DNA of 64,000 nt. It comes from an uncultured Candidatus Binatia bacterium (GTDB lineage: Bacteria; Desulfobacterota; Binatia; UBA9968; CAXXLF01). The notes beneath the pieces are model-generated. The model was not told the origin of the DNA. It did no database searches and was given only the letters and a program-made list of their open reading frames with translations. The translations under genes and the position numbers were made by a program. The stretch is from contig CBDCDW010000005.1 in assembly GCA_965215595.1 (NCBI GenBank), positions 940,323 through 1,004,322 of the forward strand. The letters run 5' to 3'. Of this stretch, positions 1 to 25,616 are shown piece by piece (the stretch's first letter is position 1; each line of letters begins with the position of its first letter).

Positions 1-197
1 AAACCCAGGAGTCCGAGTCTCCCTGTATCGTCACGAAATAGGACTAAATCCTCACCTAAAAGCCTGCGACGTTTTGGCTTGCCCTTCAGTTCCTTGGCAA
101 AACCAATGGGATACCAGTAAAAACGCATCATCTGACCCCCGGGGGTCCCCGGTCCCACCCGAGTAAACAGATCGTTTTCCTCATGGGTCAAAGCCAT
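1..197 (-). CDS. Rieske [2Fe-2S]-domain ring-hydroxylating oxygenase-like protein, N-terminal part only (gene runs off the window start)
   Basis: Not in ORF track because it is truncated by the window edge. Minus-strand ATG at 195-197 with an AGGAGG Shine-Dalgarno 8 nt upstream (rc of 206-211). Translation MALTHEENDLFTRVGPGTPGGQMMRFYWYPIGFAKELKGKPKRRRLLGEDLVLFRDDTGRLGLL resembles N-termini of Rieske non-heme oxygenase alpha subunits. Confidence 0.5.
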   Translation of the reverse strand, partial: MALTHEENDLFTRVGPGTPGGQMMRFYWYPIGFAKELKGKPKRRRLLGEDLVLFRDDTGRLGLLG

Positions 198-230
198 TGG
201 GTAATCCTCCTGCCAATATGCAACTCAACG

Positions 231-938
231 CTATCCGGTTCTAGCCTTTGTCTTGGCTTTCTTCGCCTGTTCCCCTACGCCCCAAATGTCATTGGGTAAC
301 GTCACCCCCTGTTCCTTGGCCGTAGCTGCCGCGCGCTCCCGCGCTTCCGCGGACCGCACCGCGTTCTCATCCGCTACATCTAACCCCAAGCCATCCACCA
401 TGCGCAGCCTAAAGTTAAAGTAGGCACTCACAGAAGCGATATCCAAAACGTCCCGGTCCGTCCAACCTACTTCCCTAAGCTTTTGAATGTCTTCATCGGT
501 CATCATGGCCGGTGAAAGGGTTAACTTTTCCGCCCACTCCAGCATGGCGTATTCGGCTTCCGTGAGCTTTGCCTTGCGCCAATCGTTCTGAATGAACTCT
601 GCTGTAAGATTATCTCCGCCAACTCTACGCAGGGCCCCTGCGTGACCCACCGTTCAATAGCGGCAGTGGGCCGTTAAGGAGGTTACCGTGGCGATCATCT
701 CCCGCTGGGCTGCCGTGAGACGTGACGGTCCGCGCATGATGTGCATCATCAGTTGGCGTCCGAAAAGCATCGACAAAGGGTTCAAGCTGGAAAGCTCGGG
801 CGGCGTAACGGGATGGGTTCCCGGGGGGGCGCTGCCGAAAGTCTCACCATAGGAGAGGTTCACTTCGCGCATTTTGTCATAGGCTTCCTTCAGCTCGCCC
901 TCTGACTCGTGTTCCTGAATGATTTTGATCCACGGCAT
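231..938 (-). CDS. AhpD/carboxymuconolactone-decarboxylase (CMD)-family protein, probable selenoprotein (Cys-x-x-Sec); in-frame TGA at 654-656 read as Sec
   Basis: Track ORFs 654..938 and 231..650 are in the same frame (both ends congruent mod 3) and are separated only by TGA. Joined peptide ...TAHCRY-U-VGHAGALRRVGG... puts U in a CxxU..H motif where AhpD/CMD proteins carry the redox CxxC..H. The downstream part is only the C-terminal half of a CMD fold and begins on GTG. A GC-rich hairpin follows 8 nt after the UGA. Confidence 0.55.
627..643 (-). promoter_or_regulatory. SECIS-like hairpin immediately 3' of the in-frame UGA (mRNA ACGCAGG-GGC-CCUGCGU)
   Basis: rc of 627-643 gives a 7 bp GC-rich stem with a G-rich apical loop, starting 8 nt after the UGA at 654-656. 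Position and shape are consistent with bacterial SECIS elements. Confidence 0.45.
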
Positions 939-1276
939 GGTCCATCCCTCTCTTTTAATGGGAAATCACTAACCTCTAAACAGAACGAAGGGAGTAGATC
1001 ATAACGAATTTATGCTGTCAATTATTGAACAGAAATGATCTTCGCTCTAGGATTGAAGGTTCAAAAACCCTTGTCTAATAGGCCCAAAATCTAACCAAAT
1101 ATATATGAAATTTTGGGTTGAATTTTGGATTACGGAATCGGGAATAAGATGACTCTCGCAAAGACGCAAAGGACGCCAAGTTGGGAGAAAATAGCAAAAC
1201 TTTTCTCTTTGAGGGCTTGGCTCAGGCAAAGGCTGAGCCGTCCGCTGGCGGAGTCTTAGCGCGAAAGACTTTCGAA

Positions 1277-2356
1277 TCAGCGCGGCGGTAAGGGAGCGGG
1301 ACCGGCGATCTTTTTAAAAACCTTTATTGCTTCCGGATCACCTTGGAGTTCCATGACCGCCCTTGCTTGTTGGTCTGGCAATACCGGATTGGGAACTTCC
1401 CCGACTAATTTTTCCCATGTTTTGAGCAACCGTGGATCCTTGAAAAGCTTGGTGAACGCCTCCCTCAAAATTCTCACTCGCTCCTTTGGGATGCCGGGAG
1501 GCGCCAGGTAAGGCGAACCAACTAACCTGAGGTTACGGAAGGTCTGAAGTACATTTCTCTGCAAATCCGTCCTGGCGAAACGTTCTAAAGGAGGAAGATC
1601 TTGGAAGAGGGGATCACCACGGAAACCGCCGCGAAAACCTATGGGAATCTCCATGGCGGCATGGAAGTCTACGCGCCCCTCATCGATCCATTCAGGGGTC
1701 CGTTGAAAGACGGTAATGATGCTGGCCGCCCTGACGTCCACCTCCCCCCGCATCAAGGCCAGATCCATTTCCGGGCCAGAATAGCCAGTAACAAACTTGG
1801 GGTTCTTGAAATCAAGCAGCCAAGCGAAAAGTCTATTAAAGATGTAGACCGCGTGGCCGACTGATTGGGTTGCAATCCGTAAACCGGAGGCGGTCTGGAG
1901 CTTTTTCAGACTGTTCAGACCAAGCTCCTTTCTACTCATAAGGACATAATTGGCCTTGCTGTTGCTTGAGCCCAAGTAGGTAAATTTGGTAAGGTCATAG
2001 TTCACACTTGGTTGACCCAAAACAGCGTTGGCTACAAAGCCGCCGCCTATATTGCCAAGCGTCAGACCGCCAGCCCCGGCTGCCTTGTATAGATGATTGG
2101 CAGCCTTTCTACCCCCGGCCCCTGGCATATACTGTGCCACAATATTAGGATTCCCCGGTATGAGTTTAGGAAGAACTGATATAACAGCTCTGGTTCGCAT
2201 GTCCCCCAACCCACCGGGGTTACGTCCTTGAATAACTTTAATGGTCTTCCCTTTAAATAAGGAAGATTGTGAAGAGGCAAGACTTGGCAGGAACAGAAGG
2301 GTTGTAAATATTGCGCCCGAAACAACGGGTGGCGAAAGGCTAAGCTTATATTTCAT
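1277..2356 (-). CDS. Periplasmic solute-binding protein with signal peptide (TctC/Bug-like or related SBP)
   Basis: 359 aa ORF with an N-terminal hydrophobic signal (LLFLPSLASS). Gly-rich motifs NPGGLGDMRTRA and YMPGAGGRKAANHL resemble TTT-family receptors. Confidence 0.5.
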   Translation of the reverse strand: MKYKLSLSPPVVSGAIFTTLLFLPSLASSQSSLFKGKTIKVIQGRNPGGLGDMRTRAVISVLPKLIPGNPNIVAQYMPGAGGRKAANHLYKAAGAGGLTLGNIGGGFVANAVLGQPSVNYDLTKFTYLGSSNSKANYVLMSRKELGLNSLKKLQTASGLRIATQSVGHAVYIFNRLFAWLLDFKNPKFVTGYSGPEMDLALMRGEVDVRAASIITVFQRTPEWIDEGRVDFHAAMEIPIGFRGGFRGDPLFQDLPPLERFARTDLQRNVLQTFRNLRLVGSPYLAPPGIPKERVRILREAFTKLFKDPRLLKTWEKLVGEVPNPVLPDQQARAVMELQGDPEAIKVFKKIAGPAPLPPR

Positions 2357-2445
2357 CTTCTACCTCCTTCACGAAGGGCTATGGGGTGGCCCCGGGGTTT
2401 GAATTTCGGGGAGAGGCAGGGATTCACCTTCCGGGACACCGGCTA

Positions 2446-2815
2446 AATGTTCAACAGAAGATCTCCAAAAAATAAAGTTTTTCGCGCCAAGACGCCTCCA
2501 ATTTAAACCCGAAACCCAAGCTCGAAATCCCAAGCAAACCAGAACCCTCAACTCCAAAATTCAAAATTCAAAACGGGACTATTTGGAGTTTTATGTTTAT
2601 AGATCATTTGAATTTGTTTCGAATTTCGGATTTCAAATTTCGAATTTGTATCTTTAATTAAACTTAGCGTCCTCACGTCTTCGCTCCGCTCAGAATCTCA
2701 GATGCAAAATTTCAGATTTCATATCTGAGATTTGAGATTTGCCATTTGCAATGCGCTTCGCGGGCCTTTGCGCGAGTCATCTTTTCCCCGACTCTGTGAT
2801 TCGAAATTCAACGGA
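2446..2815 (+). repeat. Copy A of a roughly 370 bp structured intergenic repeat (near-identical 187 bp core at 2599-2785); second copy at 60155-60520
   Basis: Direct comparison of 2446-2815 with 60155-60520 shows a core with about 4 mismatches, flanks about 70% identical and the same orientation. Each copy has internal AAATC(C) and GATTTC(G) heptad arrays in opposite arms, and the palindrome TCTCAGATG...CATATCTGAGA. Confidence 0.8.
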
Positions 2816-5330: not shown

Positions 5331-7290
5331 ATCAACGAGAGCTTCCAAAAGGTCTTCACTACATCGAGCTATTTCGCCACTTCACCTTTGGCCGTAACAC
5401 GGGGAGGCAGCTGACTGGGCAATGAAAGCCGCAGCTGCTCAAGCAAGACCTGGAGTTCGGGCTCAGGCTGTGTATAGCGTGACATGATCACCTTGCGTCC
5501 ATCAGTGGTCGGCAAATGCACGTCTATCATCTGAACAGCACCGAACTTTTCCAGAACCGATCGCGGTGTCAATCCCGGTGCCAAATCCCGCAGGTGGCGA
5601 CGCAAGGTCACATGCATGGCGTAAGCCATGAAGGCTACGAATATGTGAGCTTCGATGCGTTCCTCCTTCTGGTGGTGGATCGGACGGATCGCCAGATCAC
5701 CCTTGAGGTTCTTGAACGCTTCTTCGACCTGAACCAGTTGCATGTAGAACTCCCACATCTGTTCAGGCTCGCGTCCAACCAGGTTCGTTCTCAGCAAGTA
5801 ACGTCCTTCTCGGCGCCGGACCTTTTGTAGCTGGTCCTTTCGCAATGAGAACTGCACCGACCCATTGCCATCAGGGATGTCGATCCGAACCAGTCGCCAG
5901 GCCGAAGGCGATTGCTGCCTGGCGGCCCCGAGTTTCAGCAACAGCTCGTCACGCGTCAACTTCATGCCTTGTAGCTGCTTAAGCCGCCTCCACAGCTTCT
6001 TTAGTTGCCGACGCCGCATGGAGCGCTCCTTGTTGATGCGATCACGACTCTGTGCCAACACATACAACTCATCGTCTTGTGGTAGTAACTTGACCTCCAC
6101 TCCTTCGCGCACTGTATGCCACGGCTTGTCGATCAGCTCCTTCTCGTAACGGCTCAGTCGTCCCTTAGGCGTTCCCACCAGGTAATAGATCGGCGGAGTG
6201 CTTTCGCGCATCTGCTTGAGAACCTCCTCGGTCGGAATCCCCCGGTCCATCACCCAGATGCGCTCCGCTTTGCCGTACTGCTCCTCGATCTTGTTGAGAA
6301 ATCCACTCAACGTAGTCTTGTCGGCCGTGTTGCCGGCCATGACTTCATAGGCTAACGGGAACCCTTCCGGGGTCACGATCAGAGCAATCACCACTTGGAC
6401 ACAATCGAAACGCTTGTCACGGCTGTAACCATACTTTCGCTTGTCGTTTTCCGAAAAGGGTGGATTGCTCTCAAAGTAGGTGCTGGTCAGATCGTAGAGC
6501 AGCACGTCGAACTTTGCATTGAACAGATCCTTCCACCGTTGTGTCAGGTGATCAAAAAGCGCTTGCTTGTGACCCAGGAGCTGGTCCAGGCACTTGTAGA
6601 GCTTGTGGATCTCCACCAGTTCAAAGCCCGCCCCCAGACAATCGGCCATCGCGCTGTTGTCGTACCAGTGCCGATGTAACCGCCACTCGCTGCCAGGATC
6701 AATCAGCCGGTAGCAGCTCAACGCCTGCGTGATCAGATCCCAGCGCGTCCCCTTGCGGCTCGGCTCCAACCGTGTCGCCCAGAACTCATCGAGCCCCAAC
6801 TGCTCGTACAGGTGACAGGCCAGCCAGCATGCGCCCCACTGTCTGGGCCGGTGCAGTTCCAGATCCTTCAGCCGGATCTGCACCACTTCGTCGTCATCAA
6901 TTTCTACAGGCCGATCCTCGGCAAACAGTGCTATCGTACGCGGCAATACGGCTCCATCCTCGAAGACCTCGATGGTCTTACGCCATGCCTGATGCTGAGA
7001 GTCGTTGATCTCACCGAGATAGAGCACCTGGCGCTGAACGACTCGTCCACCTGTTACCCGGCGGTTCTCCACCACATTCCAGTAACGGTGTTCCTTGCCA
7101 TCTTTGTTGCGTTTCGTGCAACGTAAGAACATAGCGCACGTAGAATACTGCGTGTTGGGCAACCCTGAAAAGGGGGTAGGTCTTCACTACAGGCTGTTTA
7201 GGCCCATTTCGGGCTCACCTCGCCTTGGAAATTGGCTACTTAAAACGCGAAAAAAGTTATCGAGGGGGTCGAATCCGCTAAGTCGGGCTA
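5281..7290 (-). mobile_element. Nested IS1634-family (IS4 superfamily) insertion sequence, about 2.0 kb, with 22 bp terminal inverted repeats (18 bp perfect core)
   Basis: taAcccgacttagcggattcg at 5281-5302 is the reverse complement of 7269-7290 with one mismatch. The element contains a single 597 aa transposase ORF. Confidence 0.7.
5369..7162 (-). CDS. IS1634-family DDE transposase
   Basis: 597 aa. LLYDLTSTYFE (first D block), VMDRGI (second D) and a C-terminal HQKEERIEAHIFVAFMAY block fit the IS4/IS1634 transposase (DDE_Tnp_1) layout. Confidence 0.65.
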   Translation of the reverse strand: MPNTQYSTCAMFLRCTKRNKDGKEHRYWNVVENRRVTGGRVVQRQVLYLGEINDSQHQAWRKTIEVFEDGAVLPRTIALFAEDRPVEIDDDEVVQIRLKDLELHRPRQWGACWLACHLYEQLGLDEFWATRLEPSRKGTRWDLITQALSCYRLIDPGSEWRLHRHWYDNSAMADCLGAGFELVEIHKLYKCLDQLLGHKQALFDHLTQRWKDLFNAKFDVLLYDLTSTYFESNPPFSENDKRKYGYSRDKRFDCVQVVIALIVTPEGFPLAYEVMAGNTADKTTLSGFLNKIEEQYGKAERIWVMDRGIPTEEVLKQMRESTPPIYYLVGTPKGRLSRYEKELIDKPWHTVREGVEVKLLPQDDELYVLAQSRDRINKERSMRRRQLKKLWRRLKQLQGMKLTRDELLLKLGAARQQSPSAWRLVRIDIPDGNGSVQFSLRKDQLQKVRRREGRYLLRTNLVGREPEQMWEFYMQLVQVEEAFKNLKGDLAIRPIHHQKEERIEAHIFVAFMAYAMHVTLRRHLRDLAPGLTPRSVLEKFGAVQMIDVHLPTTDGRKVIMSRYTQPEPELQVLLEQLRLSLPSQLPPRVTAKGEVAK

Positions 7291-24351: not shown

Positions 24352-25338
24352 ATGCTTACTAAGCTAGTCCTCGGGCTGGGAGTGGGGATGATATTCGGGT
24401 TTGCGTTACAGCGGGGCCGATTTTGCATGTACACCGCATTTAGGGACATCCTCCTGATCAAGGACCTGACCTTGTTCAGGGCATATCTGTTGGCGGTTTT
24501 GATCCAGATGGTGTTGATCCATTTGCTTCGTGACTCGGGAGTAATTTCCTTTGGGCCAGACCGCTTCTACTGGCTTGGAGCCGCCACTGGTGGGTTTCTC
24601 TTTGGCATCGGTATGACCCTGGCGGGAGGTTGCGCGAGCAGCTCCTTTTACCGGGTCGGTGAAGGGATGATAGGGTCTTTCGTTGCCGTTCTCACCTTCG
24701 TCATCTTTGCGGCGGCTACGAGTGTTGGAGTCTTGAAACCTGTCGCGGTTGCTCTTTACTCCATCAACATGGACATGGGTGCTGGCTCAGCCACAATCTC
24801 AAATCTCTTTGGTGTCAACGACTGGCTCATGATTATTATTTTAGTCTTAGGAGGCGGCCTATGGCTCTTCTGGGGCCACTCGGCGGGGCCAGAAAGGGGC
24901 TGGGGGTGGCAAAAGACAGGCGTCATCATCGGATTCATAGCCGCTCTAGCCTGGTGGGCCTCATCCTTGACAGGTCGTCATTACGGCCTCACCATGACAG
25001 GCCCTTCGGCATACGTTCTTCTCTATCTCACCAGGGGAGATCAAGCTTACCTGGATTGGGGCACCTTTCAACTGATAGGGATTCCTCTGGGGGCTTTTAT
25101 CGCCGCCTCCTGGAACAATGAGTTTCGATGGCGATCCCCGCAACCAAAGAGAATTATGCTCCAGGCCCTTGGAGGAGCCGTGATGGGTATCGGGGCGGTG
25201 ATTGCAATGGGTTGTAATATTGGGAACAGTTTGACAGGCCTCAGTACAATGAGCTTGACCAGTCTCGTGGCAACTGTTTTCTTGATTCTTGGGACGTGGA
25301 GCGGGACCTATATGTTTTTCACGCGCAATAAAACCTGA
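24352..25338 (+). CDS. YeeE/YedE-family membrane protein (thiosulfate/sulfur-compound transporter TsuA-like)
   Basis: 328 aa polytopic protein with two conserved Cys-containing half-repeats (RGRFCMY.., ..AGGCASSSF.., ..AMGCNIGNS). Confidence 0.7.
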   Translation: MLTKLVLGLGVGMIFGFALQRGRFCMYTAFRDILLIKDLTLFRAYLLAVLIQMVLIHLLRDSGVISFGPDRFYWLGAATGGFLFGIGMTLAGGCASSSFYRVGEGMIGSFVAVLTFVIFAAATSVGVLKPVAVALYSINMDMGAGSATISNLFGVNDWLMIIILVLGGGLWLFWGHSAGPERGWGWQKTGVIIGFIAALAWWASSLTGRHYGLTMTGPSAYVLLYLTRGDQAYLDWGTFQLIGIPLGAFIAASWNNEFRWRSPQPKRIMLQALGGAVMGIGAVIAMGCNIGNSLTGLSTMSLTSLVATVFLILGTWSGTYMFFTRNKT

Positions 25339-25388: not shown

Positions 25389-25616
25389 ATGGCGCTTAAA
25401 AGTCTAGACGTATGTGGGGAAATTTGTCCCGATCCGCTGACCCTGACCATGAAGGCTGCCGAGGGTCTGAGCCCCGGAGATCAACTCAAAGTGACTCTCG
25501 ATTCACCCATGGCCCTGGAAACGATTTCCCGGTGGGCTGGGAAAATCGGTCATCAGGTCCTTGAGGTCCGAGAAGCAAGTGCTGGCGTGTGGGAGATCAC
25601 TCTGGAAAAGCACTGA
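25389..25616 (+). CDS. TusA-like sulfurtransferase
   Basis: 75 aa. DVCGEICPDP is the CPxP motif of TusA/SirA. Lies immediately downstream of the YeeE/YedE gene. Confidence 0.75.
   Translation: MALKSLDVCGEICPDPLTLTMKAAEGLSPGDQLKVTLDSPMALETISRWAGKIGHQVLEVREASAGVWEITLEKH

Follow-up and report, generated by a model that had tools for sequence, protein, structure and literature searches.

We propose that positions 231 to 938 on the minus strand of a 64,000-nucleotide (nt) stretch of DNA from an uncultured Candidatus Binatia bacterium (contig CBDCDW010000005.1; the whole stretch is called the window below) form one gene. Its product would be a 235-residue AhpD-like thiol/selenol oxidoreductase (TIGR01926/COG2128), in which an in-frame UGA codon at positions 654-656 is read as selenocysteine (Sec). 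We put the probability of this reading at about 0.9. The two halves of the gene lie in a single frame, the protein domain runs on across the UGA, the UGA stands opposite a catalytic Cys of homologous proteins, the TGA is conserved among relatives, and the hairpin that follows it is conserved at the RNA level, with covariation.

One reading frame across a UGA codon

A preliminary description of this DNA, made from its letters alone, had pointed to two open reading frames (ORFs) that share a frame and are parted by a single TGA, the downstream one beginning at a GTG. Read on the minus strand, this layout holds, with only the TGA and one ACG codon between the two ORFs (Table 1). The read-through peptide given at the time, written CRY-U-VGH, had the motif right and the exact sequence wrong, as a Thr had been omitted; the peptide is ...TAHCRY-U-TVGHAGALRR.... 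Its motif, C-x-x-U-x-x-x-H, has a spacing identical to the CxxCxxxH of AhpD-like proteins. The MPWIK sequence at the N-terminus is kept in homologues. A scan of the window for TGA codons joining two ORFs of the same frame returned 32 candidates, and the gene at 231-938 was the only one with a redox motif. Promoter and terminator scans of window positions 1-2600 gave no signal beyond chance.

That gene callers relying on stop codons would split such a gene had been foreseen, and they do so. In public gene calls the window gene is present only as its two halves, each listed as a separate product, and nearly every close relative recorded in the protein database is likewise half a gene. The halves come in two types, C-terminal pieces of 130-140 residues that start just past the UGA and N-terminal pieces that end in ...HCRY. 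The DNA of one full-length homologue, P0002, also has TGA at the site, and its product from the Joint Genome Institute (JGI) has Trp there. The TGA in question (L006 445-447) is on JGI contig Ga0683310_0638678; the genetic code applied to that contig evidently treats TGA as a sense codon, so that a selenoprotein is hidden as a normal-looking full-length protein.

An AhpD-like active site

With Sec written as Cys for protein-family searches, the 235-residue product matches the NCBIfam model TIGR01926 ('peroxidase-related enzyme') at 123.8 bits, well above its cutoff of 81.8 (E 6.4e-36). The match places residues 63-190 on model positions 49-177 of 178 and thus spans residue 95, the position of the UGA. 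The read-through product also exceeds the cutoff of the Pfam CMD domain (31.6 bits, cutoff 23). Five solved structures, 6k40, 3c1l, 2oyo, 2pfx and 2prr, align with residues 65-190 at E values from 6e-24 to 3e-17, again with the match crossing the UGA. In these structures, 6k40 and 3c1l among them, the UGA takes the place of the second CxxC cysteine, and it does the same in eight Cys-containing homologues (P0061, P0064, P0066, P0067, P0069-71 and P0077). The alignment of the UGA with a Cys codon in Cys homologues, proposed earlier as a check, thus comes out in favour of Sec, in both the homologues and the solved structures.

The residues around the UGA form a recognizable array. Glu80, Cys92, Tyr94, Sec95 and His99 have the E-x11-C-x2-C-x3-H spacing of a proton relay, described as Glu36/Cys48/Tyr50/Cys51/His55 in PA0269 and as Glu118/Cys130/His132/Cys133/His137 in Mycobacterium tuberculosis AhpD (PMC3141380). 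The position of Glu80 is Glu in all full-length rows of our alignment A1, whether the row has Sec or Cys at the active site; its conservation cannot be judged on the 101 gene copies described below, since the pattern used to collect them itself required that Glu.

An AlphaFold model was made of homologue P0002, which is 55-56% identical to the window protein, has the same TGA and stands in for it here. The model is a single, confident, all-helical domain with a predicted local distance difference test (pLDDT) score of 90.2 and a predicted template modelling (pTM) score of 0.88. The structures closest to it are the same AhpD-like proteins, 6k40, 3c1l, 2oyo, 2pfx and 2prr, with template modelling scores (TM-scores), normalised to the target, of 0.79-0.86. 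The active-site helix of the model spans residues 94-106, and the residue equivalent to Sec95 is in its first turn. On this model the product of the window gene is predicted to be a single all-helical domain of the AhpD fold carrying the Glu80/Cys92/Tyr94/Sec95/His99 array.

The P0002 model also resembles the thiol-dependent debrominase Bmp8 (6ohi, 6ohj), with an E value near 1e-4 and target-normalised TM-scores of 0.75-0.77. This likeness is a reminder that CMD-fold enzymes with a CxxC motif include more than peroxidases.

Conservation of the UGA codon

In a scan of species-representative genomes, 38 loci were found. The top one, at 86% identity, belongs to a Candidatus Binatia metagenome-assembled genome (MAG), and the remainder are mostly from Dehalococcoidia, although for a few the label goes no further than Chloroflexota or Chloroflexia. 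A scan of metagenomes added 42 further loci. The gene copies in these loci number 101 (76 distinct 51-mers). Among them are three paralogues that lie close together in the Binatia loci L030 and L034 and whose identity, both with each other and with the window protein, is only 33-46%. TGA stands at the site in 101 of 101 copies, while TAA, TAG or a sense codon occurs in none, and in every copy the reading frame continues past it. Homologues that end at this position in a different stop codon, which would have spoken for a true stop, were therefore not found. Five contigs from the window's own species, L001-L005, were assembled independently of one another and share the identical TGA.

This constancy can be set against the use of stop codons in the window at large, where 39 long ORFs end 16 times in TGA and 23 times in TAA or TAG. 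Because TGA is an ordinary stop in 16 of these ORFs, the organism uses the standard genetic code, and an alternative code can be ruled out. With all three stop codons in use, one would expect a genuine stop to vary between TGA, TAA and TAG.

A candidate selenocysteine insertion sequence

Bacterial Sec insertion depends on a hairpin, the selenocysteine insertion sequence (SECIS), close behind the UGA. The published model of the bacterial element (bSECIS) has an apical loop of 3-9 nt, a stem of 4-16 base pairs (bp), a distance of 16-37 nt from UGA to loop and a minimum free energy of at most -7.5 kcal/mol; the loop carries G within its first two positions, usually in the form N1-G-[G/U]-N-N2 with N1 and N2 paired (PMC13188914). 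A SECIS-like hairpin had been claimed for the window gene, and the 7-bp stem at the place then given is indeed there (Table 1). Its distance from the UGA, put at 8 nt, is in fact 10 nt, with 17 nt from UGA to loop. The hairpin falls within all four of the published limits, with the loop G-GGC-C. In a sister clade the loop pattern is A-GUU-U. Nearly all other copies fit the model too; two, at -7.1 kcal/mol, lie slightly above the energy limit. The claim of a SECIS-like element is borne out by this agreement and by conservation at the RNA level.

That conservation is visible in codon third positions across the 76 distinct copies. Entropy is 1.57-1.74 bits in the three codons ahead of the stem. 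Of the six codons in the stem-loop, those for His, Ala, Gly/Glu and Leu fall to 0.18-0.30 bits and the closing Arg codon has 0.74 bits; 3' of the stem the value returns to 1.6-1.9 bits. The same is seen in single residues: at codon +5, Ala is encoded by GCA in 72 of 72 copies, whereas at +3 all four Ala codons occur; at +8, 72 of 76 copies have CTG for Leu, whereas Leu at +16 draws on all four codons.

Base pairing is preserved along with the bases. Four diverged Binatia paralogues have a compensatory change from C-G to G-C (GCA..CTG to GGA/GGG..CTC), and 19 sequences have a compensatory change from G-C to A-U; in one of these the 3' partner falls on the third position of a codon for Ala, which reads GCT instead of GCC. 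Two further loci, L078 and L081, carry two stem substitutions each, and both pairs are kept as G-U. Stem positions are paired in 97% of alignment cells; sliding the 3' partner by 1-3 columns lowers this share to 26-56%. In three Cys homologues with a similar peptide, the hairpin is absent in that register (0.0 to -4.7 kcal/mol); one of them encodes H-A-E-P-L-R as CAC GCC GAG CCG CTG CGC.

Relation to known proteins

Selenoproteins of the AhpD-like CxxU type had been named as a known bacterial family, and the literature documents them as such. The family was first found in Sargasso Sea data, with 27 sequences (PMC1088965); as 'AhpD-like 1' (COG2128, CxxU) it accounts for 299 sequences of the Global Ocean Sampling data and is among the most abundant families there (PMC2398784); and 'AhpD-like protein, TIGR01926, CxxU' appears among the listed prokaryotic selenoprotein families (PMC13188914). 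The window gene is a further member, of a family whose motif and mechanism have already been described. It shares with this family (TIGR01926/COG2128, YciW-type) a score above the model cutoff, Sec at the second Cys, a SECIS right after the UGA and widespread Cys-containing homologues, and differs in its host, which is Candidatus Binatia-like, the top genome match being 86%. Two segments set the clade of the window gene apart from the 185-residue Cys homologues, which lack both: about 20 residues inserted behind the first helix, and a helical tail at the C-terminus some 45 residues long.

The closest solved relatives are DR1765 of Deinococcus radiodurans (6k40) and 3c1l, 2oyo, 2pfx and 2prr. 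They have the Glu...CxxC...H arrangement in common with the window protein, but carry Cys in place of Sec, are only about 25-40% identical and lack both the insertion and the C-terminal tail. A mutant of DR1765 is sensitive to H2O2, and its complementation requires the cysteines of the CxxC motif (PMC8945050, summarising Zhao et al. 2020). M. tuberculosis AhpD (1knc), an adaptor that reduces AhpC, has the same catalytic spacing and helix-turn-helix active-site motif (PMC3141380), whereas its overall match to the P0002 model is poor (E 0.27, TM-score 0.45-0.56) and its His132 is replaced by Tyr in the window protein, as in PA0269.

Three neighbouring assignments were considered and rejected. 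A canonical AhpC-coupled AhpD of the M. tuberculosis type would call for an ahpC partner, and there is none within 10 kb. A gamma-carboxymuconolactone decarboxylase (PcaC) would call for close kinship to characterised decarboxylases and a pca or aromatic ortho-cleavage setting; the window protein offers only the generic Pfam CMD score and a poor match to 4g9q (E 0.24), and CMD enzymes are described as having no CxxC relay (PMC3141380). NF041238, AhpD_rel_CFYUT ('hypothetical protein 1' of the Sargasso Sea), is a related CMD-fold CxxU selenoprotein that matches residues 68-202 weakly, at 47 bits against a cutoff of 175.

Discussion

We suggest a mechanism in which SelB, carrying Sec-tRNA(Sec), would bind the hairpin at the UGA and insert Sec95 where a release factor would otherwise act, by analogy with the established bacterial pathway (PMC13188914). 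The insertion itself, as well as the substrate and the reductant, is inferred. In M. tuberculosis AhpD the two Cys residues have separate roles, Cys133 being the nucleophilic one. Sec95, placed where Cys133 is in that protein, would accordingly act in ours as the attacking nucleophile. It could be activated through His99, a water molecule and Glu80, as proposed for AhpD (PMC3141380), and Cys92 may then resolve the intermediate to form a selenenylsulfide. Some reductant would recycle the selenenylsulfide, and the enzyme would reduce a peroxide or an oxidised partner protein.

Several observations weigh against this assignment. Neither selA, selB and selD nor a tRNA-Sec was found in the 64-kb window by Pfam context and a tRNA scan, and an Rfam search of the whole window returned tRNA-Thr only. 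ARAGORN likewise gave no tRNA-Sec in the flanks of the 63 loci scanned among 82 fetched related ones, flanks that were unscreened for sel genes. Our literature search found no paper on selenocysteine in Binatia. No gene for ahpC/peroxiredoxin (AhpC-TSA, Prx) or a lipoamide enzyme lies within 10 kb on either side. As for the hairpin, no Rfam family matches its region at E <= 10, and the fold of an 81-nt region is not significant against shuffled sequences (z = -1.43). The stem overlies the conserved peptide H-A-G/E-x-L-R, so that its conservation is partly driven by the protein, and one of the two covarying pairs (20-24) coincides with amino-acid changes. As the single-sequence fold is not significant, the case for the hairpin rests on the comparison with related sequences. 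One 93-nt ARAGORN hit, called 'tRNA-Gly(tcc)' at L033 405-497 on the minus strand, was set aside as a false positive; it lies inside a coding sequence and has no Rfam tRNA match.

Other explanations of the same gene layout have to be weighed with these points in mind. Were the TGA a true stop, the 94-residue and 139-residue polypeptides, the latter started at the GTG, would form a split AhpD-like protein that lacks the second catalytic residue. Exactly these two products are what public gene callers report, and in the window the GTG sits two codons past the TGA. Among the 76 distinct copies, however, codon +2 is a usable GTG start in just 10; in the others it is GTC, GTT, GTA, ATC, ATT or ACC, varying freely among mostly Val and Ile codons, and there is no conserved restart codon after the UGA. 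A true stop is also hard to reconcile with an invariant TGA in 101 copies when TAA and TAG close 23 of the 39 long ORFs of the window. The break would also part the two catalytic residues from each other, within the first turn of the helix that holds the active site, and would leave a conserved, covarying hairpin exactly where a SECIS is expected. We regard a split protein as highly improbable. A pseudogene, or a sequencing or assembly error that turned TGC or TGT into TGA, is effectively refuted: the codons do differ by one base, but the same TGA appears in the five independent contigs of the species and in every other copy, and both halves retain conservation at the protein level.

It is less simple to say which amino acid the UGA specifies. 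Variants of tRNA(Cys) that resemble tRNA-Sec have been described in some bacteria. A tRNA(Cys) (UCA) of this kind, together with a SelB-like factor, could insert Cys at the UGA, or the hairpin could stimulate near-cognate reading as Trp or Cys. That no Sec machinery was found in the window leaves some room for such decoding. Against it, the family, the CxxU motif and the hairpin all fit a documented selenoprotein family (PMC13188914, PMC2398784), and the Dehalococcoidia, in which the same gene occurs, are known to be rich in selenoproteins (PMC13326102). Moreover, a plain Cys codon would give Cys with no need for recoding, but such a codon is absent from all 101 copies. We consider a residue other than Sec very unlikely, and favour a selenoprotein for the window gene.

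Merging the two halves corrects the proteome of this organism, which gains one redox selenoenzyme in place of two meaningless half-proteins or a Trp read-through product. The same misannotation affects dozens of Binatia and Dehalococcoidia MAGs. The gene also marks its host as a likely user of selenocysteine, which bears on selenium demand and on oxidative-stress physiology in uncultured soil and marine lineages. Finally, the 101 copies provide a clean, covariation-supported example of a SECIS-type element that could seed an RNA model.

Genomic surroundings

Table 1. Features of the proposed selenoprotein gene and its immediate neighbour in the window
Feature	Position	Strand	Details
AhpD-like selenoprotein coding sequence, complete	231..938	-	235 codons + TAG stop 231-233; ATG 936-938; Sec = residue 95
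Upstream ORF	654..938	-	94 aa; ATG start 936-938
Downstream ORF	231..650	-	139 aa; GTG start 648-650
In-frame UGA (proposed Sec95), in place of the second Cys of CxxC	654..656	-	TGA conserved; opposite Cys in homologues
Single codon ACG between TGA and downstream ORF	651-653	-	direct reading
Active-site codons	642..665	-	Cys92 663-665, Tyr94 657-659, Sec95 654-656, His99 642-644; direct reading
Glu80 codon, proton-relay Glu position	699..701	-	12 residues ahead of Cys92; direct reading
Candidate SECIS hairpin ACGCAGG-GGC-CCUGCGU	627..643	-	7-bp stem, loop GGC, 5 G-C + 2 A-U, -9.6 kcal/mol
Shine-Dalgarno-like GAGGGA	945..950	-	6 nt 5' of ATG; direct reading
Start of Rieske/LigXa_C-type oxygenase gene, cut by window edge	1..197	-	ATG 195-197, GGAGG 206-210; downstream, 33-nt spacer

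Downstream of the selenoprotein gene, and probably in the same operon, begins a gene for a Rieske/LigXa_C-type oxygenase. Only its start lies in the window; in L002-L005 the gene was found to have the Pfam domains Rieske [2Fe-2S] and LigXa_C. A neighbour of this type recurs in 21 of 81 related loci from both Binatia and Dehalococcoidia (for example L007 3751-4905, L017 288-1655 and L043 3673-4995), and this recurrence suggests a functional link with the selenoprotein.

The selenoprotein gene itself is multiplied in some loci. Seven Dehalococcoidia loci (L010, L011, L012, L013, L015, L017 and L018) hold tandem arrays of 3-4 or more copies. In L012, four full-length copies could be read, each with its TGA, and in L011 and L015 the clustering of ORFs points to five or more. 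In Binatia, L030 (3001-6539) and L034 (3001-6515) have three CxxU paralogues, diverged from one another and packed into 3.3 kb, and every one of them has its own TGA and hairpin.

It is tempting to speculate on a more specific role, in which this clade, rather than scavenging peroxide in general, would serve the neighbouring Rieske/LigXa-type oxygenase as a dedicated selenol partner in aromatic catabolism. Such a partner could reduce or repair the oxygenase, detoxify peroxide arising from uncoupling, or act as a reductive dehalogenase in the manner of Bmp8 or a deiodinase. A role with aromatic or halogenated compounds is hinted at because the Rieske/LigXa neighbour occurs in two phyla, the arrays occur in Dehalococcoidia and the fold is Bmp8-like; all the same, we think this proposal unlikely to be correct as it stands.

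A different setting is seen for the Cys homologue P0061, whose gene lies in L089 between a rubrerythrin gene and a second gene with a CMD domain (1-231 and 872-1158). This is an oxidative-stress context, and it is not shared by the Sec form of the window.

Upstream of the selenoprotein gene, a minus-strand gene at 1277-2356 encodes a 359-residue protein whose N-terminus resembles a signal peptide and which matches no Pfam family at E <= 0.001. The region is also polymorphic for insertion sequences (IS). A DDE_Tnp_1 transposase gene at 5369-7162 (minus strand) is present in only some samples of the same species, IS polymorphism among the same-species assemblies is seen at L001 10622-12085, L002 6486-7817 and L003 3625-5388, and in L001 another IS lies between the selenoprotein and Rieske genes.

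Farther along the window, on the plus strand, a YeeE/YedE-like membrane protein (PF04143 Sulf_transp) is encoded at 24352-25338 and is followed, at about 25389-25616, by a TusA-like protein of 75 residues. Pairs of the YedE/YedF type have been tied to selenium metabolism by comparative genomics and also act in thiosulfate uptake.

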